A model generated the notes under the pieces. It saw nothing but the letters and a program-made list of their open reading frames with translations. It was not told the origin of the DNA and ran no database searches. From a virus (taxonomy: Duplodnaviria > Heunggongvirae > Uroviricota > Caudoviricetes), in the IMG/VR virus record IMGVR_UViG_2778261461_000001, positions 1 to 21,304 of that record: a stretch of DNA of 21,304 bases; one strand, 5' to 3'. Position numbers and translations under genes: made by a program. Positions 1 to 12,063 of this stretch are shown here, piece after piece. Numbering within the stretch: position 1 is the first letter of the stretch; every line of letters begins with the position of its first letter.

Positions 1-525
1 CAGCTTCTCAACGGATTTATACCATGGCACTTTAAAGCCAGCATCACTGACAATGAGCGGTGTGGTGTTACTCGGTAGAATGCTCGCAAGGTCGGCTAGA
101 AATTGGTCATGAGCTTTCTTTGAACATTGCTCTGAAAGCGGGAACGCTTTCTCATAAAGAGTAACAGAACGACCGTGTAGTGCGACTGAAGCTCGCAATA
201 CCATAAGCCGTTTTTGCTCACGGATATCAGACCAGTCAACAAGTACAATGGGCATCGTATTGCCCGAACAGATAAAGCTAGCATGCCAACGGTATACAGC
301 GAGTCGCTCTTTGTGGAGGTGACGATTACCTAACAATCGGTCGATTCGTTTGATGTTATGTTTTGTTCTCGCTTTGGTTGGCAGGTTACGGCCAAGTTCG
401 GTAAGAGTGAGAGTTTTACAGTCAAGTAAGGCGTGGCAAGCCAACGTTAAGCTGTTGAGTCGTTTTAAGTGTAATTCGGGGCAGAATTGGTAAAGAGAGT
501 CGTGTAAAATATCGAGTTCGCACAT
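1..525 (-). CDS. IS10 transposase, N-terminal 175 codons (partial, continues beyond window)
   Basis: Minus-strand translation from ATG at 525 gives MCELDILHDSLYQFCPELHLKRLNSLTLACHALLDCKTLTLTELGRNLPTKARTKHNIKR..., recognised as IS10/Tn10 transposase; in frame to the window edge. Not in the ORF track because it has no stop in the window. Confidence 0.9.
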   Translation of the reverse strand, partial: MCELDILHDSLYQFCPELHLKRLNSLTLACHALLDCKTLTLTELGRNLPTKARTKHNIKRIDRLLGNRHLHKERLAVYRWHASFICSGNTMPIVLVDWSDIREQKRLMVLRASVALHGRSVTLYEKAFPLSEQCSKKAHDQFLADLASILPSNTTPLIVSDAGFKVPWYKSVEKL

Positions 526-586
526 TTTGTTGTCTGATTATTGATTTTTGGCGAAACCATTTGATCATATGACAAGATGTGTATCT
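518..586 (+). ncRNA. IS10 RNA-OUT antisense RNA (approximate bounds)
   Basis: Position inferred from the known IS10 layout (pOUT reading outward across the transposase start); sequence ttcgcacattttgttgtctgattattgatttttggcgaaaccatttgatcatatgacaagatgtgtatc resembles RNA-OUT from memory. Bounds are not verified. Confidence 0.45.
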
Positions 587-1119
587 ACCTTAACTTAATG
601 ATTTTGATAAAAATCATTAGGGGATTCATCAGTGCTTGGCAGGCATAATAAGAGGCAATAGAGTAAAAATCCCGAAAGAACAAGATATGCCATGTACGCT
701 TCAATTAACGATGATATATGTCGGCATCACCTTTTTCCTAATTGTCGGTTATATCTGCCATCAAATAACTTAGAACTGATTTAGAATTGAATTTGATAAA
801 GCTTACTACAAAGTAGTTTTGTCAATGTTCAACCTGTTTATCAAACCTACGGTGACTTTTTATGACTGGGAATGGTATCAATACTGTACGCATAAACAAC
901 GAAGTGAAACACATCTCAGAGTTAGATCCGGAGATCTCTTTTTCTTGAATGGAATAAACTGAAAAGTGAAAATAACGAACTGTATCGCTGCATAAAGGAA
1001 GCAAATTCTGGTTGGCGTGGTTTTGTCCTTCGTTTAATAGGGGTTTATCTACCTGATGGCAAAACAATTGTCATTAAACCCTAGATTATTTGAATATTCC
1101 TAAACATAGGCTTAATAAG

Positions 1120-1143
1120 AAAAGCCACTGAAAAGTGGCTTTT
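1120..1143 (-). terminator. Rho-independent terminator downstream of the H-NS-like ORF
   Basis: Perfect hairpin AGCCACT-gaaa-AGTGGCT; on the minus strand it is followed by TTTTCTTATT, 30 bp after the stop at 1175. Confidence 0.5.
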
Positions 1144-1174
1144 GAACTGAGCTGTTCGCGATTTTAATTTCAAC

Positions 1175-1933
1175 TTAGATGAGGAAATCATCCAGTGTTT
1201 TACCGGCTTCAAGTTGTTCGGCCAGTGCTTTAGGGGTACGCCCCTGGCCAGTCCAGGTTTTCGTTTCACCATTAACATCAGTGTATTTATATTTCGCAGG
1301 GCGCGGTTCGCGAACTTTTTTAGGTGCTCCGGACTTTGCAGAGAAAGAACTCAGTAACTCTTCAGGGTCAATTCCATCTTCAAGCATTAATTGACGCAGG
1401 GATTCAATCTTCTCCAGACGCGCTTTCAGCTCAGCTTCTTTTGAAGATTCTTCCTGACGTCGTTCTTCAATATTTGTATCAACCTGAACCTTCTGTATCT
1501 GCTGGATCGCTGCACTCTGGTCTTCCAGTTTCTTATTGACGGTCTGTGTGATTTCATTGCTGACATCCGTAATGGACGTCCTGATTTCAGCCAGGTCAGG
1601 CGCAAGCTGACCGTTATCAATCTGCGTCCACAGCTCCTGAGCCAGATGGGTTTTCCCTATCTCGCCTTTGAAAAAATCCAGATAGCCGGATGCATCATCA
1701 CTCGGCTGACCAACAGCCTCCACGAATGCCGATTTGCCAACGGTGTTCACACTGCGGATATAAAAGTAATAATCATGGCCCGGTTTGATATTGATACTGG
1801 CGGCTATCCAGTACAGCGCCGTACCAAGATAGCTGCTGCTCCCCAAGCCACACAGGAGGCTCATTATCTCCGGCCATACGCGCATCATGTTCCTGCCATT
1901 GTTTCGCGTGTGCCCAGGCATCACTACCCGCAA
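1175..1933 (-). CDS. Chimeric ORF: lambdoid host-specificity protein J internal fragment fused in frame to an H-NS/StpA-family C-terminal region (probable recombination product, possibly pseudogene)
   Basis: Residues about 35-105 ([41 protein letters not shown]...LDFFKG) match the lambda J C-terminal region; residues about 155-252 (IEERRQEES...[13 protein letters not shown]...[24 protein letters not shown]...LDDFLI) match the H-NS/StpA linker and DNA-binding domain including the TWTGQGRTP motif. The annotated start is TTG and there is no ATG near the H-NS-like part. Confidence 0.55.
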
Positions 1934-2003
1934 AAATAATGACTTCTGTTCCTTTGTGTTTTATGCCGCGTGACTGCTGTTTTACGTTCGGTGCCAGTTT
2001 CAT
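1773..2003 (-). CDS. Hypothetical small protein (76 aa); 3' end reads J-derived DNA out of frame, so likely truncated by the insert/J junction near 1831
   Basis: ATG at 2003 overlaps the upstream stop (ATGA) and is preceded by AGAGG; the C-terminal about 20 codons overlap J-homologous DNA in another frame. Confidence 0.4.
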
Positions 2004-2299
2004 TTTTTACCTCTGAATCCGTTAATCATGGTTTTCATTTTCTGGATATTTCCCCACGCTTTTTCCCTGCTGATGGGCTTACTGCGGGGTGCGGCATATA
2101 CCAGGGAAAAATCACGCCGGAACTGATAAACAGGCATCACGCAGTCATAGCTATACCCCTCACGGCGGTAAGTGATGCGCCGTTCTGCCACGCCTTTAAT
2201 CGTTACCGTGCCGCCGTATTTATCGCGGTAAATATCGCCGTTCATAAATTCAGTTCGAGCGGGGCCGCTGGCAATAAAGCCAGAATTTTTCATTTCCAT
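2000..2299 (-). CDS. Hypothetical small protein (99 aa), fourth gene of small-protein operon
   Basis: ATG with GAGGA 10 nt upstream; ATGA stop/start overlap with the downstream gene; no family recognised. Confidence 0.5.
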   Translation of the reverse strand: MEMKNSGFIASGPARTEFMNGDIYRDKYGGTVTIKGVAERRITYRREGYSYDCVMPVYQFRRDFSLVYAAPRSKPISREKAWGNIQKMKTMINGFRGKK

Positions 2300-2316
2300 A
2301 TTATTTATTCCTCGAC

Positions 2317-2538
2317 TTAACTCGACTTATTTGATAGCAGGGCACTATTTATTGCGTCATTGAGTTTTTCTGCTGATTCATCAATAAGTGACAACAGGCC
2401 ATAAGCAATATTTGCATCTTCATTGTCATTTATGCAATCAAGCCACATATTTAATATTGCTTTTGCTGAATTATTTAAAGTTAATGAACTTTCTGCACAT
2501 GCTAACAATTTAAAAAAGACTTCCCGTTCTGTATTCAT
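2317..2538 (-). CDS. Hypothetical acidic small protein (73 aa), third gene of operon
   Basis: ATG immediately follows the upstream stop at 2539-2541; GGGGGA upstream; predicted helical and acidic; no family recognised. Confidence 0.5.
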   Translation of the reverse strand: MNTEREVFFKLLACAESSLTLNNSAKAILNMWLDCINDNEDANIAYGLLSLIDESAEKLNDAINSALLSNKSS

Positions 2539-2730
2539 TTAATCCCCCACCAGCTTACTTTCTTCCTCAATCAAAAAACTAGCGACACTTCCCGAAAGAC
2601 GCGCCAGTAGGCTCGCCAGTGCGGATATATCAGCATCTGTAATTTTGTTCGGGTATACCTCAAGAAGGCGGCAAATAATTTCTGTCTGGTGCGCACGTTC
2701 AGCGGCTTCGTGTAATGTAATTTCCTGCAT
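2539..2730 (-). CDS. Hypothetical small protein (63 aa), second gene of operon
   Basis: TAATG stop/start overlap with the upstream gene; GAGGTG upstream. Confidence 0.5.
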   Translation of the reverse strand: MQEITLHEAAERAHQTEIICRLLEVYPNKITDADISALASLLARLSGSVASFLIEEESKLVGD

Positions 2731-2915
2731 TAATGCACCTCTTTTAATTCATACATTGCTGAAATAATGACTTGTGATAAGCCATATTCTGATGATTCGC
2801 TTCTCACCGCAGCAATAGCCGTCTGAACATTAACAGCCTTCACATTCTGAGCGATACCAATTGTGTGGCCTATTGGGTTAACAGCTCGGGCAAATACACG
2901 GAAGGTTTTAAGCAT
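2730..2915 (-). CDS. Hypothetical small protein (61 aa), first gene of operon
   Basis: ATG at 2915 with GGGAG 7 nt upstream; lies directly downstream of the divergent regulatory region. Confidence 0.5.
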   Translation of the reverse strand: MLKTFRVFARAVNPIGHTIGIAQNVKAVNVQTAIAAVRSESSEYGLSQVIISAMYELKEVH

Positions 2916-3194
2916 GACTCACTCCCTGGCGGATTTTTGCAGCGAATACAGCAACACAACCGGACGGGCAACGGCTACGCGCTTCGCGTTCCGTCCAGGC
3001 GGTTACGTGGATGATTTGAGATTCTCCGGCACTCAGTGCCAGAAAACGCCACACAAAGGCCGTTTGTGTGTGTACAAGGTGTGGTATATGATTTACAGCA
3101 ACCATAACGGCTCCTAGTTTACGTTGTTGGTTAGACGCCCCGTATGTGTTCCCAGCACTGCGGGGCGTTGCTCTTTGTATTTCAACAATCCTTT

Positions 3195-3275
3195 CGGTGT
3201 GTTTCATGTTATGAGCGCATGAAACACACGTCAAGGCTTTTTGTATTTCTTTTTTTGTGTATACTGAAACACACC
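3195..3275. promoter_or_regulatory. Putative operator/promoter region between the RHH regulator gene and the small-protein operon
   Basis: Inverted repeat GTGTGTTTCATG (3197-3208) - 9 bp - CATGAAACACAC (3218-3229), with a third half-site TGAAACACAC at 3265-3274 overlapping a TATACT -10-like hexamer (3260-3265) about 30 bp upstream of the RHH start. Confidence 0.4.
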
Positions 3276-3295
3276 GATGATTAGGAGTTTCAGAA

Positions 3296-3601
3296 ATGGC
3301 AACGGCTAACAAAAACGCAAAATCACAACTGACAACTGTCAGAGTCCCACTAGATGTTATGCAAGGGATGGAATCCGTTAAGCTGGACGGTGAAAGCAAT
3401 GCCGGATTTATCGTAACCGCCATGCGCGGAGAAATAGCCCGCCGCCAAGCAGAAGGCAGCGGAGAAAATCCCCTTGTGTCGTCACTGGATGCCCTGGCTA
3501 AGGTCGAACAAATCGGCATCAAAGCAGCCGAGGAGATCGGGCAACTCGTCACCGTCGCGCGTGAAGAACTCCAGCGACGCAAGGTCAAAGAGCATGAATA
3601 G
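3296..3601 (+). CDS. Putative ribbon-helix-helix (Arc/CopG-like) transcriptional regulator (101 aa)
   Basis: AGGAG 8 nt upstream of the ATG; N-terminus (TTVRVPLDVMQGMESV...AGFIVTAMRGEIARRQ) has a beta-strand then two helices typical of RHH; sits beside the palindromic operator. Confidence 0.55.
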   Translation: MATANKNAKSQLTTVRVPLDVMQGMESVKLDGESNAGFIVTAMRGEIARRQAEGSGENPLVSSLDALAKVEQIGIKAAEEIGQLVTVAREELQRRKVKEHE

Positions 3602-3658
3602 CCAATATCAGCGCCATAGTTTGAGGAACGCAGGCGCATTGCTTTACAGGACAGCACC

Positions 3659-3838
3659 ATGAGCGACACAGAATCAACCAAAACACCATCACCAACTCGT
3701 AAGAGACGACGCAAAAATATAGCGCATGAACATGAATCAGAAAGATTCGCACCTTGTTCGTTTGCTCTTGAGAAATTCCTTAAAGAGCACAGGAAAAAGC
3801 TCTCGTTGCAAACCTTGGAACGAACCAAATCTGACTGA
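3659..3838 (+). CDS. Hypothetical basic small protein (59 aa); below the ORF-track length cutoff
   Basis: ATG at 3659 with AGGA 7 nt upstream, 57 bp after the RHH gene and followed by a terminator; translation MSDTESTKTPSPTRKRRRKNIAHEHESERFAPCSFALEKFLKEHRKKLSLQTLERTKSD. Confidence 0.3.
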   Translation: MSDTESTKTPSPTRKRRRKNIAHEHESERFAPCSFALEKFLKEHRKKLSLQTLERTKSD

Positions 3839-3904
3839 TCACATTGCCCACCAGCCGCAAATGTGGCATTGTTGGTGATGCTTTTGTTTTCCCTTGTTCC
3901 CACT

Positions 3905-3936
3905 GGCGACCCTTTTGCGGTCGCCTTTGTTTTGTC
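3905..3936 (+). terminator. Rho-independent terminator for the plus-strand RHH/59-aa unit
   Basis: GGCGACC-cttttgc-GGTCGCC hairpin followed by TTTGTTTTGT. Confidence 0.5.
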
Positions 3937-4513
3937 ACTGAATGCGGTTACCAAAGTAAAACTCAGGCTGATATTCACGTATCAGCGTTTTTTCTTCTTC
4001 CTCCAGCTCACGCTTTTTGCGCTTACATGCCTGTAGCTCCCTCCCCTTCTCGCTGGCACTTATTTGATATTGCTCTTTACGGCGGGAAAAATCCTGTAAT
4101 GCACCCCACGGGATACCATAAGTCCCCGTTTTTCTGATACCTGGTATCACATTTCTGAATACCCAGTTACTGAAACGATGAGCAAATGTGCCAGGCGTCG
4201 TTGCTTTGCGGCTGCGGGCTATTAGTTTGTAGAAACCTGACTCAGAGATAATTCTCATATTCTGATTTCCTCCTGGGGTGTAAGTTAAATTTACTCCCTT
4301 TTCATCATCATCAAGCATCTGCAACGCCGTACGCGAATTGGTTAGTTCCAGCGCAGCACAAACATCTTTTGCAACAAACCACGGATCGCCGTTCAGATAC
4401 ACCACACGAACGTTCACACTATCAAAGCGCAGAACGACGAGATCACGAATATCGCAGAATTTTTTCACTGGACGAGCGTACCCCTTGCCCGTCACGGCAA
4501 TATTTTTATTCAT
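3935..4513 (-). CDS. Bro-N domain protein (phage antirepressor-like), 192 aa
   Basis: N-terminal region (FDSVNVRVVYLNGDPWFVAKDVCAALEL) is a recognisable Bro-N/antirepressor-type motif; C-terminus is charged and coiled-coil-like. Confidence 0.7.
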   Translation of the reverse strand: MNKNIAVTGKGYARPVKKFCDIRDLVVLRFDSVNVRVVYLNGDPWFVAKDVCAALELTNSRTALQMLDDDEKGVNLTYTPGGNQNMRIISESGFYKLIARSRKATTPGTFAHRFSNWVFRNVIPGIRKTGTYGIPWGALQDFSRRKEQYQISASEKGRELQACKRKKRELEEEEKTLIREYQPEFYFGNRIQ

Positions 4514-4531
4514 CGCGTTTTTACCTTATAG

Positions 4532-4556
4532 ACAAAAAACCCCTCGTGATGAGGGG
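4532..4556 (-). terminator. Hairpin with T-run after alpA (terminator or attenuator)
   Basis: CCCCTC-gtgat-GAGGGG followed on the minus strand by TTTTTTGT, 14 bp after the alpA stop and about 20 bp before the Bro-N start. Confidence 0.4.
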
Positions 4557-4569
4557 CATTATTTACTGG

Positions 4570-4827
4570 TTATTGCTGTTTTGTTTTTCCAGGTTTCCAT
4601 CCAGGATGCCACTCACCACGGATCCATGCCTGAACCTCTGAAAGTCGATACCCTGCAGCACGTTCACCGATCTTGATACGTCGCGGGAATTTACCTGCCT
4701 GCTCCATTTTCCAGCGTGTTGAGTTTGCCAGCGTGGTAAGTGCTATGCACTCTTTTTCACGAATGAACCGATCAATGTCCTTCATTGTGCGCAAATCGTT
4801 TTCATCAACAAGAGAATAAATTGCCAT
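4570..4827 (-). CDS. alpA: AlpA-family transcriptional regulator / excisionase-like protein (85 aa)
   Basis: Sequence (...GKFPRRIKIGERAAGYRLSEVQAWIRGEW...) matches the AlpA/Vis-type HTH family; start is 1 nt after the integrase stop, GAGGTGG upstream. Confidence 0.8.
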   Translation of the reverse strand: MAIYSLVDENDLRTMKDIDRFIREKECIALTTLANSTRWKMEQAGKFPRRIKIGERAAGYRLSEVQAWIRGEWHPGWKPGKTKQQ

Positions 4828-4828
4828 A

Positions 4829-6070
4829 TCACACCACCTCTTTATTAAGCTCGATAACGTTGTTGTTAAATCCTGCTATCGTATTAAGGTAATTAACCCA
4901 CATATTAAGCACCTCAAGTTTTTTCTTTATATGCCTGCTTTTATTGTAAACACCAGCAACCCCTTTCACTTTATGACCTAAAAGAAGTTCGACAATATAA
5001 GGATCCGCCCCCATATCATTAAGCGTAGTGGAAAATGTGCGCCTGAAATCATGTATGCACCACAAGCCATTAGTATCATGACCAAGACGCCTGCATATTC
5101 TGTTTGCAGCCCCTGTTATTGTCGCCCTTTGCAAAGCACAACCGACAACATAACCGCGATTTTTTGTTTCTGCGTAAAGATTAACGATCCATTGTTTTAT
5201 TCCGTCAGGAACAGGCCTTACTATAGCCTCCTTGTTTTTGCTGTGCTCTTTTGGGACTGTCCATACCCAGTTTTTTAAATCCCATTCGTCCCAGGTGGAT
5301 AGCCTCGCCTCCTGCTGTCGGCAACCAAACACCAGGCAGATAACCATTATTCTTCGGTTATATATTGATGACAGAGTTAGCAAATTATTACCGTAAGCAT
5401 AAGACCATACATCAGCGGTTTCATTGATATTAAGAACGCGATCCCTTATACCGGATGAGCGCCCGACATAACTTACGTTAATATCTCCAAAGGGATCGCA
5501 CGCGATGTATTGCCTGACGCGACAAAAACGCAACGCCTGTTTGATATCAAGAAAAATTGCACCAGACATAACAGGCGCATTTTTTTTGATCCTGTCAAAG
5601 ACGGTAAGCCATGTGTGTAATTTGCACTGTTCTATAGCCATATCACCGATATAGGGGAAGATATGCTTTTCAAATCGTTTTATTAAATATTCATGCTCTT
5701 TTCTGGCTGTTGTGGCGTGATTGTCGTACCAGTAAAACAGCGCATCCCTTACGGTCACTGGTTGCATAGTTTTTTCGGCAGCAAGTTTTATTTGCCTGCG
5801 GGGGTCCAGATTTTCAGCCAGCCATTCACGGCACTGATCACGCATGCGCCTGGCCGTTGCAAGAGACATGTCAGGATAGCGACCAAGTGTAAGCCATACC
5901 GGAGGGGATTCCCTGCCACCAAGACGATAGTAAAAAACAAAGCTGATCCCCCCAACCATGCTTACACGCACAGACAACCCGCGCCCATCCGCTATTGTTT
6001 TTTGTTTGTCCTGCCGTTTTCCGACAAGACTCTTTAACAGTTTGTCACTGAGTTTGTTTTCAATAGCCAT
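4829..6070 (-). CDS. int: Tyrosine recombinase (P4/CP4-57-type integrase with N-terminal arm-binding domain), 413 aa
   Basis: N-terminal DUF4102-like arm-binding region (GRGLSVRV...FYYRLGGRE...LTLGRYPDMSLATAR) and C-terminal catalytic motifs (HDFRRT, LLGHK, GVYNKSRH); GAGGG upstream of the ATG. Confidence 0.85.
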   Translation of the reverse strand: MAIENKLSDKLLKSLVGKRQDKQKTIADGRGLSVRVSMVGGISFVFYYRLGGRESPPVWLTLGRYPDMSLATARRMRDQCREWLAENLDPRRQIKLAAEKTMQPVTVRDALFYWYDNHATTARKEHEYLIKRFEKHIFPYIGDMAIEQCKLHTWLTVFDRIKKNAPVMSGAIFLDIKQALRFCRVRQYIACDPFGDINVSYVGRSSGIRDRVLNINETADVWSYAYGNNLLTLSSIYNRRIMVICLVFGCRQQEARLSTWDEWDLKNWVWTVPKEHSKNKEAIVRPVPDGIKQWIVNLYAETKNRGYVVGCALQRATITGAANRICRRLGHDTNGLWCIHDFRRTFSTTLNDMGADPYIVELLLGHKVKGVAGVYNKSRHIKKKLEVLNMWVNYLNTIAGFNNNVIELNKEVV

Positions 6071-6086
6071 TAAAAGCCCTCAAGAG

Positions 6087-6142
6087 ATTTGCAATACACA
6101 CCCATCCCGATCGCCAATTTGCAATACACATTGCAATACACA
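6087..6142. repeat. Three direct repeats of TTGCAATACACA upstream of the integrase start (candidate arm-type or regulator binding sites)
   Basis: Copies at 6089-6100, 6119-6130 and 6131-6142, 20-70 bp upstream of int. Confidence 0.5.
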
Positions 6143-6270
6143 AAACCGCGAAAAACTGGAAGGGTGATGAACGGTCATCAAAAGCATGGAAAACGACATT
6201 CCAGACGCAGCAAGGGTTTCAGTGGAGTTGGCGAACGATGCGGGCAACTACGGTGAGATGATAGACATAA

Positions 6271-7303
<1,033 letters not shown>

Positions 7304-7954
7304 TCATCCTCTCCGGATAAGGCACGGGCGTAATCTGCCAGTGTTTTCTTGTTGGTTGCTGCACCATCCTCTTCCTGCAGGCTCGCCAGCAGTGCACTGA
7401 GATCCAGCTGCCAGCGGGAAATACTGATGCGCAGCGCCGCCAGCGCATATCAGTTCATCCAGCGCGGCTGCTTTGTTCATGGCTTTGATAATATCCCGTT
7501 TCAGGAAATCAACATGTCGGTTTTCCAGTTCCGGAAAACGCCGCTGCACCGACAGGGGGAGCCCGTCGAGAATACTGGCAATTTCACCTGCGATCCGCGA
7601 CAACACGAAAGTACAGAATGCGGTTTCCACCACTTCAGCGGAGTCTCTGGCATTCTTCAGTTCCTGTGCGTCGGCCTGCGCACGCGTAAGTCGATGGCGT
7701 TCGTACTCAATAGTCCCTGGCTGGAGATCTGCCTCGCTGGCCTGGCGCAGTTCTTCAACCTCCCGGCGCAGCTTTTCGTTCTCAATTTCAGCATCCCTTT
7801 CGGCATACCATTTTATAACGGCGGCAGAGTCATAAAGCACCTCATTACCCTTGCCACCGCCTCGCAGAACGGGCATTCCCTGTTCCTGCCAGTTCTGAAT
7901 GGTACGGATACTCGCACCGAAAATGTCAGCCAGCTGCTTTTTGTTGACTTCCAT
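7304..7954 (-). pseudogene. nu1: Terminase small subunit Nu1 fused to the 3' end of terminase large subunit gene A (internal deletion of nearly all of A)
   Basis: Matches lambda Nu1 up to ...AAALDELI (junction about 7447-7451); downstream DNA corresponds to the last about 50 codons of A read out of frame. Confidence 0.8.
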
Positions 7955-8131
7955 TGTTCATTCCACGGCCAAAAACAGAGAAAGGAAACGACAAAGGCCC
8001 AAAAGTTCGTTTTCAGCACCTGTCGTTTCCTTTCTTTTCAGGGGGTATTTTAAATAAAAACATTAAGTTACGACGAAGAAGAACGGAAACGCCTTAAACC
8101 GGAAAATTTTCATAAATAGCGAAAACCCGCG

Positions 8132-8143
8132 AGGTCGCCGCCC
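8132..8143. other. cosN cohesive-end site, with cosB and cosQ flanks at about 8040-8210
   Basis: AGGTCGCCGCCC is the reverse complement of the lambda cohesive end GGGCGGCGACCT; flanks match the remembered lambda left-end and right-end sequences. Confidence 0.8.
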
Positions 8144-8342
8144 CGTAACCTGTCGGATCGCCGGAAAGGACCCGCAAAATGATAATAATTATCATCTGCA
8201 TGTCACAACGTGCATCTACGCCATCAAACCACGTCAAATAATCAATTATGACGCAGGTATCGTATTAATTGATCTGCATCAACTTAACGTAAAAACAACT
8301 TCAGACAATACAAATCAGCGACACTGAATACGGGGCAACCTC

Positions 8343-8537
8343 ATGTCAACGAAGAACAAAACCCGCAGAACAACAACCCGCAACATCCGCTTTCCTAACC
8401 AAATGATTGAACAAATTAACATCGCTCTTGAGCAAAAAGGGTCTGGGAATTTCTCAGCCTGGGTCATTGAAGCCTGCCGTCGGAGACTAACGTCAGAAAA
8501 GAGAGCATATACATCAATCCAAAGTGATGATGAATAA
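8343..8537 (+). CDS. Small conserved ORF (64 aa) corresponding to a lambda right-end ORF; possible RHH-like fold
   Basis: DNA matches the remembered lambda right-end region; translation MSTKNKTRRTTTRNIRFPNQMIEQINIALEQKGSGNFSAWVIEACRRRL... Confidence 0.45.
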   Translation: MSTKNKTRRTTTRNIRFPNQMIEQINIALEQKGSGNFSAWVIEACRRRLTSEKRAYTSIQSDDE

Positions 8538-8896
8538 ACATCCCGGTTTCTTCCACCATCGCACCGGAAAAGCGACTATGAGGGTAACCCTGCGTCTGTC
8601 AGCACAGTAAAACCCGGTGTGCATCGTTTTTGATTATTCCCGCACACTCACGCAGAAGGAATTCCCCGTCGGGCTACGGTCATGGTTAATGCGGGAATAC
8701 GGCGACGATACAGCGCAGCTAAAAGGGTAATGGACAGATAGAGCGGTTTATTTCATTCCACAGGATTCTGAGTGCCCCCCTCCTCCAATAGGCTGAGCAT
8801 CCACCTATATAGTTTTATTTTTCATCAATCCATTTAACTATCGTTTAATTGTTGTCACATAGGATTCTGCCGTTTTTAACAATGCAGGATAATAAG

Positions 8897-9190
8897 ATGA
8901 AAAAAATGTTGTTTTCTGCCGCTCTGGCAATGCTTATTACAGGATGTGCTCAACAGACGTTTACTGTTGGAAACAAACCGACAGCAGTAACACCAAAGGA
9001 AACCATCACCCATCATTTCTTCGTTTCGGGAATTGGACAGGAGAAAACTGTTGATGCAGCCAAAATTTGTGGCGGCGCAGAAAATGTTGTTAAAACAGAA
9101 ACCCAGCAAACATTCGTAAATGGATTGCTCGGTTTTATTACTTTAGGCATTTATACTCCGCTGGAAGCGCGGGTGTATTGCTCACAATAA
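8897..9190 (+). CDS. bor: Bor lipoprotein (serum-resistance, lysogenic conversion), 97 aa
   Basis: MKKMLFSAALAMLITGCAQQTF... with lipobox LITGC; matches lambda Bor; AGGA upstream of ATG at 8897 (the ORF-track start at 8849 is rejected). Confidence 0.85.
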   Translation: MKKMLFSAALAMLITGCAQQTFTVGNKPTAVTPKETITHHFFVSGIGQEKTVDAAKICGGAENVVKTETQQTFVNGLLGFITLGIYTPLEARVYCSQ

Positions 9191-9221
9191 TTGCATGAGT
9201 TGCCCATCGATATGGGCAGCT

Positions 9222-9683
9222 CTATCTGCACTGCTCATTAATATACTTCTGGGTTCCTTCCAGTTGTTTTTGCATCGTGATCAGCCTCTCTCTGAGAGTG
9301 AAATAATCCCGTTCAGCGGTGTCTGCCAGTCGGGGGGAGGCTGCATTATCCACGCCGGAGGCGGTGGTGGCTTCACGCACTGACTGACAGACTGCTTTGA
9401 TGTGCAACCGACGACGACCAGCGGCAACATCATCACGCAGAGCATCATTTTCAGCTTTCGCATCAGCTAACTCCTTCGTGTATTTTGCATCGAGCGCAGC
9501 AACATCACGCTGACGCATCTGCATGTCAGTAATTGCCGCGTTCGCCAGCTTCAGTTCTCTGGCATTTTTGTCGCGCTGGGCTTTGTAGGTAATGGCGTTA
9601 TCACGGTAATGATTAACAGCCCATGACAGGCAGACGATGATGCAGATAACCAGAGCGGAGATAATCGCGGTTACTCTGTTCAT
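9222..9683 (-). CDS. Rz: Rz i-spanin (lambda-type), 153 aa from ATG at 9683
   Basis: Matches lambda Rz (…[58 protein letters not shown]...); ATGA overlap with the endolysin stop. Confidence 0.85.
9281..9463 (-). CDS. Rz1: Rz1 o-spanin lipoprotein embedded in Rz in the +1 frame
   Basis: [52 protein letters not shown]; lipobox plus proline-rich region typical of lambda Rz1. Confidence 0.8.
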
Positions 9684-10177
9684 TGCTGACCCCACAAACA
9701 GATTTCACGCTCAATCTCACGACGAGTCATGAGACCTTTCCATTGCTTACCGCCAGCATATGTCCAGCGACGTAGCTGATCACATGCGCCTTTGATATCG
9801 CCCTGGTTTATTTTGCGAAGAAGCGTCGATGTTCTGAAATTGCCAGCACCCACGTTGTAAACGAATGAGTAAAGAGCGCCGCGCGTTGTTTCCGGTATAT
9901 CGACTTTGATGTACGGGTTAATTTGTCTGGCGACCGTGGCAAGGTCTTTATTCAGGAGGGCTTTGCATTCTGCTTTGGTATACGTTTTACCGAGCATGAT
10001 GTCTTTTCCTGTATGCCCGTGACATACAGTCCATACACCAACAATATCTTTGTATGGTATGTAGCTGACACCTTCCAGACCATCGTTACCACTTGGGCCA
10101 GTGATTAACACTGATGCTATAGCAATTGCTCCGCCACCAATAGCAGCAGCAACGGCTTTTCGTAATGATGGAGGCAT
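9680..10177 (-). CDS. R: SAR endolysin (phage 21 R-type, T4-lysozyme family with N-terminal signal-anchor-release domain), 165 aa
   Basis: N-terminal Gly/Ala-rich SAR segment ([20 protein letters not shown]) followed by a lysozyme-like domain; overlaps the holin stop. Confidence 0.85.
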
Positions 10178-10980: not shown

Positions 10981-12063
10981 ATGAAAAAATTAACAGTGGC
11001 AATTTCTGCTGTAGCTGCATCAGTACTGATGGCGATGTCTGCTCAGGCAGCTGAAATTTATAATAAAGACAGTAACAAGCTGGATCTGTACGGGAAAGTT
11101 AATGCTAAGCACTACTTCTCCTCTAATGATGCAGATGATGGTGATACTACTTATGCCCGTCTTGGCTTCAAAGGTGAAACCCAAATCAACGATCAACTGA
11201 CTGGTTTCGGTCAGTGGGAATATGAATTCAAAGGCAACCGCGCTGAATCTCAAGGTTCCTCCAAAGATAAAACCCGTCTTGCCTTCGCTGGCCTGAAATT
11301 CGGTGACTACGGCTCCATCGATTATGGCCGTAACTACGGTGTAGCATACGATATTGGTGCATGGACCGACGTTCTGCCAGAATTCGGTGGCGATACCTGG
11401 ACCCAAACAGATGTATTCATGACTGGTCGCACCACAGGTGTTGCAACTTATCGTAACAACGACTTCTTTGGTCTGGTTGATGGCCTGAACTTTGCAGCTC
11501 AGTATCAGGGCAAAAATGACCGAAATGAAGTAACTGAAGCTAATGGCGATGGTTTCGGTTTCTCAACTACTTATGAGTATGAAGGATTCGGCGTGGGTGC
11601 AACCTATGCTAAATCTGATCGCACTAATAATCAGGTTATCTACGGTAACAACGGTCTGAATGCTTCTGGTCAAAATGCTGAAGTATGGGCAGCTGGTCTG
11701 AAATATGATGCGAACAACATCTATCTGGCCACCACCTATTCTGAAACCCAGAACATGACTGTTTTTGGTAATAACCATATTGCCAACAAAGCACAAAACT
11801 TCGAAGCTGTTGCACAATATCAGTTCGACTTCGGCCTGCGTCCATCCGTTGCTTACCTGCATTCTAAAGGAAAAGACTTGGGTGTTTGGGGTGATCAGGA
11901 CCTGGTTGAGTATGTTGATGTAGGTGCAACCTATTACTTCAACAAAAATATGTCCACTTTTGTTGACTACAAAATCAACCTGATTGATAAGAGCGATTTC
12001 ACGAAAGCATCTGGCGTTGCTACCGATGATATCGTTGCTGTAGGTATGGTTTACCAGTTCTAA
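10981..12063 (+). CDS. nmpC: Prophage-encoded general porin of the OmpC/OmpF/NmpC (Lc) family, 360 aa with signal peptide
   Basis: Signal peptide ending AQA, then [23 protein letters not shown]... and C-terminal ...VAVGMVYQF typical of enterobacterial porins; position between Q and the lysis cassette on the opposite strand matches DLP12 nmpC and PA-2 lc. Confidence 0.85.

Follow-up and report, generated by a model that had tools for sequence, protein, structure and literature searches.

A composite reading frame at a plasmid–prophage junction in Escherichia coli that joins phage J to the 3' part of IncHI1 plasmid hns, probably as a recombination scar

The stretch of DNA analyzed here, referred to as the window (21,304 nt; IMG/VR record IMGVR_UViG_2778261461_000001, contig NNVK01000057.1), brings together an IS10 end, a piece of IncHI1 plasmid backbone, and the remnants of a lambdoid prophage that carries a phage satellite (Table 1). 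Across the boundary between the plasmid and the prophage DNA runs a composite open reading frame (ORF) made up of three parts, namely, about 31 codons of a satellite replicase read out of frame, 123 codons of J, and codons 38-134 of hns.

Table 1. Features in and around the composite reading frame (window coordinates)
Feature	Position	Strand	Details
IS10 (IS10R-type) outside end and 5' part of transposase gene	1..632	-	ATG 525; runs off contig start
IncHI1 backbone downstream of hns	633..1174		only small hypothetical ORFs; BLAST
hns intrinsic terminator (predicted)	1120..1143	-	AAAAGCCACU-UUUC-AGUGGCUUUU, then CUUAUU; RNA fold, centroid hairpin
Composite ORF	1175..1933	-	TTG 1933 to stop 1175-1177; 252 codons
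3' 296 nt of IncHI1 plasmid hns	1175..1470	-	codons 38-134 and stop; BLAST, alignment
Plasmid hns/prophage J joint (putative illegitimate recombination)	1470..1471		window vs strain C1 vs plasmid; BLAST breakpoints
Internal lambdoid J fragment	1471..1840	-	approximately lambda J 762-885; 100% identical to strain C1 and, as protein, to ev099 J
Satellite replicase/primase, N-terminal ~58 codons	1831..2003	-	ATG 2003; continues as ORF 1773..2003

A first, sequence-only reading of this DNA had described an in-frame J/H-NS chimera of 252 codons, and we recovered both the ORF itself and matches to the two protein families in Pfam and PDB sequence searches. In the J part, Ig_J_second was detected at ORF residues 33-88 (Pfam, E = 1.6e-18), covering only positions 49-104 of the 105 in the profile, and ORF residues 32-107 aligned to residues 762-837 of lambda J (PDB sequence search, E = 3e-34). 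Further along, positions 37-78 of the Histone_HNS_N profile matched ORF residues 155-196 (Pfam, E = 1.2e-9), and Histone_HNS matched residues 213-252 (Pfam, E = 4.6e-16); with near-complete identity to a plasmid H-NS in addition, the H-NS likeness of the C-terminal region is far beyond chance. The C-terminus of the ORF also matched structures of the StpA and H-NS DNA-binding domains (2LRX, 1HNR, and 2L93), and its C-terminal part aligned to the structure of H-NS 1-83 (3NR7, residues 31-84; all PDB sequence search). Pfam and the alignment place the switch to H-NS exactly at residue 155, where it had been put approximately. The segment before it had been taken for about 120 residues of J, which is right for the 123 J codons but not for the first ~31 residues of the ORF, a replicase/primase fragment in the wrong frame: the satellite was cut and joined to J out of frame, and the initial codons are therefore replicase DNA rather than J. 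Gene callers start the composite protein at ATG 1885 (236 aa) or at ATG 1864 (229 aa, MBB9096764.1).

The J fragment comprises the C-terminal half of FNIII-2 and the alpha-helical shaft (domain names after PMC11101478), the latter being a three-helix bundle in the virion (PMC11101478). In a tblastn search of 50,697 phages, ORF residues 38-154 were 98-100% identical to J of phages ev099, 1H12, and 21 and of Stx2-converting phages, such that over this segment the chimera is nearly identical to the phage 21/ev099-type allele of lambdoid J. Unlike a lambdoid J, however, it retains only ~123 of ~1,130 residues. The homology begins at about residue 762 of lambda J, upstream of which lies satellite replicase DNA, and the N-terminal hub domains are absent, as are complete FNIII domains, the beta-prism fiber, and the C-terminal receptor-binding domain. 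In E. coli strain C1, the J fragment reaches its natural stop after 405 codons, whereas in the window it is interrupted by plasmid DNA after 123 codons, with ~280 J residues of the C1 homolog missing. Without the hub domains, the beta-prism fiber, and the receptor-binding domain, the chimera cannot be a tail component. The possibility that this C-terminal sequence naturally belongs to some J proteins, in which case the ORF would not be a chimera, was rejected: every J match among the 50,697 phages stops at residue 154, and the best 120 of 2,130 matches in a search of 5.8 billion protein clusters (E ≤ 1e-5) are all J and reach no more than 52% coverage of the chimera.

On the other side of the joint, positions 633-1470 are 100% identical over 838 bp to IncHI1 plasmids pCP53-mcr, pHCM1 (S. 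Typhi CT18), pO111_1, and many others (BLAST), and in these plasmids the donor gene is a complete hns of 134 codons. The donor protein, WP_001287388.1, is identical at 133 of its 134 residues to HNSP_SALTI (UniProt Q9L5H8), the H-NS of R27/pHCM1. ORF residues 155-252 and donor residues 37-134 are identical at 98/98 positions save for the junction codon, residues 156-252 corresponding exactly to 38-134. Thus, the resemblance to H-NS/StpA noticed from the sequence holds as far as the H-NS family is concerned, but the donor is an H-NS of the R27/pHCM1 plasmid type, and the H-NS part of the chimera is only 58% identical to StpA and 51% identical to chromosomal H-NS. The DDFLI ending, which had been read as StpA-like, is the normal C-terminus of IncHI1 plasmid H-NS. 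The close relative of this plasmid H-NS described in the literature is Sfh of pSf-R27.

H-NS is organized into dimerization site 1 (residues 1-44), dimerization site 2 (52-82), a linker (84-93), and a DNA-binding domain (93-137), and it multimerizes head-to-head via site 1 and tail-to-tail via site 2, both sites being required (PMC6411929). The retained piece of hns encodes the C-terminal half of helix alpha3, site 2 (H-NS residues ~52-82; Histone_HNS_N positions 37-78 and 3NR7 residues 31-84), the basic linker, and the C-terminal DNA-binding domain with the TWTGQGRTP minor-groove loop. Site 1 is absent: positions 1-36 of the Histone_HNS_N profile are unmatched, only donor residues 38-134 are kept, and 37 of the 44 site-1 residues are missing. 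The loss of the H-NS N-terminus had been recognized in the sequence-only reading, which put it at about 40 residues; the figure is 37. In addition to its role in dimerization, site 1 is the Hha-binding surface. Plasmid identity stops at 1470, inside the gene, and with the 5' end went the hns promoter, its ribosome-binding site, and its start codon. Consistent with the earlier remark that no ATG lies near the H-NS-like part, the sole in-frame ATG, at 1387 (Met183), has no Shine-Dalgarno sequence; it would yield a 70-residue fragment starting inside site 2, and we rejected it as a separate start for the H-NS part. Set against the H-NS gene of R27/pHCM1, then, the retained DNA matches at 100% through the stop codon and terminator and over 540 bp beyond the stop, but the chimera lacks codons 1-37, the ribosome-binding site, and the promoter, and is joined to foreign sequence. 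Since both site 1 and the expression signals proved to be missing when looked for, the chimera is not a functional member of the H-NS family. The automatic label “H-NS histone family protein” attached to MBB9096764.1 is misleading.

The 3' end had been described as having a clean hairpin terminator, suggestive of a former bona fide gene end, and RNA folding indeed predicts a hairpin there, within the segment that is 100% identical to the plasmids. It consists of a 10-bp stem with a GCCAC/GUGGC core followed by UUUUCUUAUU and lies 32 nt past the stop codon. Given that the whole of 633-1470 is plasmid DNA, this terminator is the plasmid hns's own.

When the window, strain C1, and the plasmid were compared side by side, the J|hns joint showed microhomology of 0-1 nt. 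Within chimera codon 155, the joint follows the first base, turning Val37 of H-NS into Ile155, and because it lies after the first codon base in both genes, the frame is preserved. For two genes on the same strand, chance alone keeps the frame in 1 of 3 cases, and the in-frame status is therefore of little weight. Beyond the joint, positions 1471-10050 are gaplessly 100% identical to the chromosome of strain C1 (BLAST).

The C1 counterpart is a lambdoid prophage that occupies the lambda attachment site and is flanked by ybhC and ybhB/bioA. The window holds the int-xis end of the prophage together with ybhC, ybhJ, and ybhI, and the ybhC side of the attachment site is intact. Before the J::hns joint arose, this prophage had already acquired at least three rearrangement joints: replicase'|J' at ~1831-1840, Nu1'|A' at 7448/7449, and the interruption of the portal gene by the satellite. 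With J::hns as the most recent, the scars number at least four. At the replicase'|J' joint, an 80% DNA match to the RepA-family gene of an intact satellite stops at 1831, and the replicase fragment is joined, in a different frame, to J at codon ~762. This is an older deletion joint common to C1, in the annotation of which a “DNA primase family protein, missing C-terminus” overlaps a “phage tail tip protein, missing N-terminus”; among the 5,426 complete E. coli genomes, it occurs in strain C1 only.

The satellite itself (window ~1831-6220) encodes a tyrosine integrase, an AlpA-like HTH protein, a Bro-N protein, an Icd-like protein, a DUF4222 protein, and the truncated replicase, and adjoins a truncated portal gene. 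The joint between the integrase and the portal fragment is present in 64 of the 5,426 complete E. coli genomes. In strain CFSAN064035 (NZ_CP031134.1, 4084-14467), an intact satellite of ~10.4 kb is flanked on either side by the portal halves of a lambdoid prophage and encodes a major capsid protein, a decoration protein, and a small terminase of its own, a set similar to that of capsid-forming PICIs. The position of the satellite in the portal gene looks like site-specific integration into a phage morphogenesis gene.

No record spanning the J|hns joint was detected among the 5,426 complete E. coli genomes, 72,556 plasmids (PLSDB), and 50,697 phages, and the exact 38-mer over the joint had 0 matches in metagenome contigs and in GTDB representative genomes. 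The exact chimera was found only in GCA_002485665.1, the assembly that contains the window contig, in a Logan assembly, and in GCA_012384935.2. It is called as a 236-aa protein on NNVK01000057.1 and on the Logan re-assembly, and as the 229-aa MBB9096764.1 on contig AASJJC020000066.1 of GCA_012384935.2. The two NCBI contigs are 100% identical over 11.4 kb, which indicates that both isolates belong to one lineage. A full-text search found no publication mentioning the assembly or the WGS accessions. These comparisons show from which three sources the DNA derives and exactly where it was broken, that microhomology is lacking, and that the joint is confined to a single lineage.

The plasmid fragment is bordered by IS10, an IS4-family element that is 100% identical over 632 bp to the IS10 copies of R100, R27, and pHCM1. 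Its terminal inverted repeat (CTGATGAATCCCC…) ends at 632, and the transposase gene starts ~108 bp inside the outside end. This end lies 540 bp past the hns stop and 838 bp from the J|hns joint, and the 9 bp beside it, TGCTTGGCA (633-641), are close to the IS10 target consensus NGCTNAGCN. IS10 was found at the 632/633 site in none of the 72,556 plasmids and none of the 5,426 complete E. coli genomes, and the insertion is therefore lineage-specific. The outward promoter of IS10, pOUT, would face the plasmid fragment, antisense to the chimera. The same IncHI1 segment, with hns intact, is also present in the chromosome of strain PC6 (NZ_CP080253.1, 2143872-2156709), between ISEcp1 and IS1 and adjoining ydiR and then the ars operon. 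It represents an independent capture of this plasmid region, so that capture of a piece of the backbone by a chromosome has a precedent.

We interpret the composite ORF as a dead scar of illegitimate recombination, that is, a by-product of rearrangement and not an evolved gene, and assign this reading a probability of roughly 0.8. The possibility of a dead recombination scar, already raised from the sequence alone, is favored by the blunt joint, the scarred state of the prophage, the occurrence in one lineage, and the loss of the hns promoter and start. The frame kept across the joint and the good terminator at the end of the ORF point in the opposite direction. Under this interpretation, the lambdoid prophage at the lambda attachment site would have been gutted first, with a capsid-forming-PICI-like satellite in its portal gene; one deletion would have fused the satellite replicase to J codon ~762 in a different frame, and a second would have removed the large terminase gene. 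A later blunt, end-joining-type recombination would have linked the J fragment, ~123 codons in, with an IncHI1 resistance plasmid broken inside hns at codon 37/38, the matching gene orientation and the retained frame being due to chance. The resulting ORF would begin in satellite DNA, cross J, and enter the 3' two-thirds of hns, ending at the stop and terminator of that gene. IncHI1 DNA would thus have entered the chromosome with one end sealed inside J, and IS10 may have provided the other anchor, via homology or transposition. We infer this order of events, the movement of plasmid DNA into the chromosome and not the reverse, and a product without useful amount or function.

The arrangement resembles defective-prophage scars and IS-associated plasmid capture in having several blunt joints between unrelated sequences and an IS beside the captured DNA. 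Here, however, the J|hns joint is not at an IS end, and the frame is kept, by chance, across unrelated genes. Simple reciprocal integration of the whole plasmid found no support. The product predicted for a reciprocal exchange, H-NS(1-37) fused in frame to the C-terminus of J (317 aa), is not in a collection of 15 billion proteins, although the source strain could carry a J tail unlike that of C1, so that this absence counts only slightly against such an integration.

The main alternative, which we consider unlikely, is that transcription reading through from the satellite operon leads to a chimeric protein that acts on the H-NS network. Such a protein could bind DNA and, via site 2, pair with H-NS, StpA, or plasmid H-NS, but it would be unable to lengthen a filament; it could thus cap their filaments, resulting in dominant-negative anti-silencing, or else it could occupy AT-rich DNA without the ability to spread. 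The chimera retains complete versions of site 2, the linker, and the DNA-binding domain, with no difference from those of a functional plasmid H-NS, and similar, R27-type plasmid H-NS proteins are reported to interact with H-NS and StpA (PMC11796372). The ORF shares its strand with the icd-like/DUF4222 operon of the satellite, which lies upstream of it, so that read-through transcription would be possible, and ATG 1885, with AGGA five nt upstream (AGGA-N5-ATG), is a plausible start. Furthermore, in a single-sequence AlphaFold2 model (mean pLDDT 63; usable for the long helix and the rough topology of the DNA-binding domain, with the Ig part unreliable), an unbroken helix spanning residues 87-162 leads across the joint from the shaft into H-NS alpha3 (pLDDT ~90), and the fusion is therefore not obviously misfolded at this point. 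On the other hand, half of an FNIII/Ig domain makes up the N-terminal ~55 residues (pLDDT <50); it is probably unable to fold alone, a condition that would favor degradation. The chimera has no promoter of its own, and no promoter-like site was found on the minus strand within ~1.2-1.3 kb upstream of the ORF; both candidate starts, ATG 1885 and ATG 1864, lie inside the residual replicase ORF and out of frame with it, and, judged by sequence, the internal start sites appear weak. Site 2 by itself is the weaker, heat-labile interface (PMC6411929), and the chimera is confined to one clonal lineage. Natural and laboratory precedents also differ from it. H-NST of the EPEC/UPEC islands and dominant-negative hns alleles made in the laboratory keep the N-terminal oligomerization domain and have lost DNA binding. 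Like these, the chimera is a partial H-NS with one interaction surface that could poison H-NS multimers, but it keeps the opposite half, with the DNA-binding domain, and has lost site 1. A more elaborate version, which we regard as quite improbable, is that a chimera both made and active would have site 1 replaced by the trimerizing J shaft, continuous in one helix with alpha3, and thus a new geometry of H-NS multimers. If so, it could cap and antagonize the resident H-NS/StpA filaments; alternatively, it could form branched DNA bridges that do not depend on Hha. Its expression would come from the operon of a phage satellite.

Two further explanations concern the joint as such. IS10 transposase could potentially have made it, by moving IS10 and its 838 bp of plasmid flank as a unit, using a pseudo-end within hns for insertion into J. 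IS10 is indeed appropriately placed, 838 bp away, and, read inward from the joint, the plasmid DNA (TTGAAGAACGACG...) shares 11 of 23 positions with the outside end, among them 7 of the first eight. Nevertheless, 2% of the positions in the window match equally well, position 1 (C) and most of the transposase-binding bases 9-13 (TCCCC) are wrong, and the 9 bp on the J side, TATTTGTAT, are unlike the IS10 target; moreover, this explanation was proposed post hoc, with the data already seen, and we rate it as highly unlikely. The other possibility is an assembly artifact, a short-read contig chimeric between plasmid and chromosome. In line with this, the contig is a short-read draft that ends in IS10, and the flanks of the joint are 100% identical to common sequences. 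But there is no shared repeat at the joint to collapse (0-1 nt), and misassembly mediated by repeats was accordingly rejected; furthermore, the identical joint is present in two separately submitted NCBI assemblies and in the Logan re-assembly of reads. The lack of a repeat and the independent assemblies make misassembly very unlikely, the least probable of the explanations weighed here.

Taken as a scar, the chimera is a fresh instance of an ordinary kind of event, another recombination scar among mobile elements and of little consequence as it stands. The joint marks a junction between plasmid and chromosome (IncHI1 DNA with IS10 on one side, a prophage at the lambda attachment site on the other) in one E. 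coli lineage, and it is of some use for tracing the entry of resistance-plasmid DNA into chromosomes. Should the protein be made and perturb H-NS silencing, it would be a natural “site-1-less” H-NS, a class of which only laboratory constructs are otherwise known.

Elsewhere in the prophage, the 216-codon “Nu1” ORF (7304-7954) is itself a scar, consisting of the small terminase gene with a foreign tail (joint at 7448/7449); compared to CFSAN064035, a deletion of ~1.8 kb at this point took out the large terminase gene. The prophage also carries an OmpC/NmpC-type porin gene (360 aa) beside holin, lysozyme, and Rz genes, and a Bor/Iss lipoprotein gene (10981-12063 and 9222-10177). This porin, lysis, and Bor cargo represents ordinary lambdoid morons, with identical annotation in strain C1.
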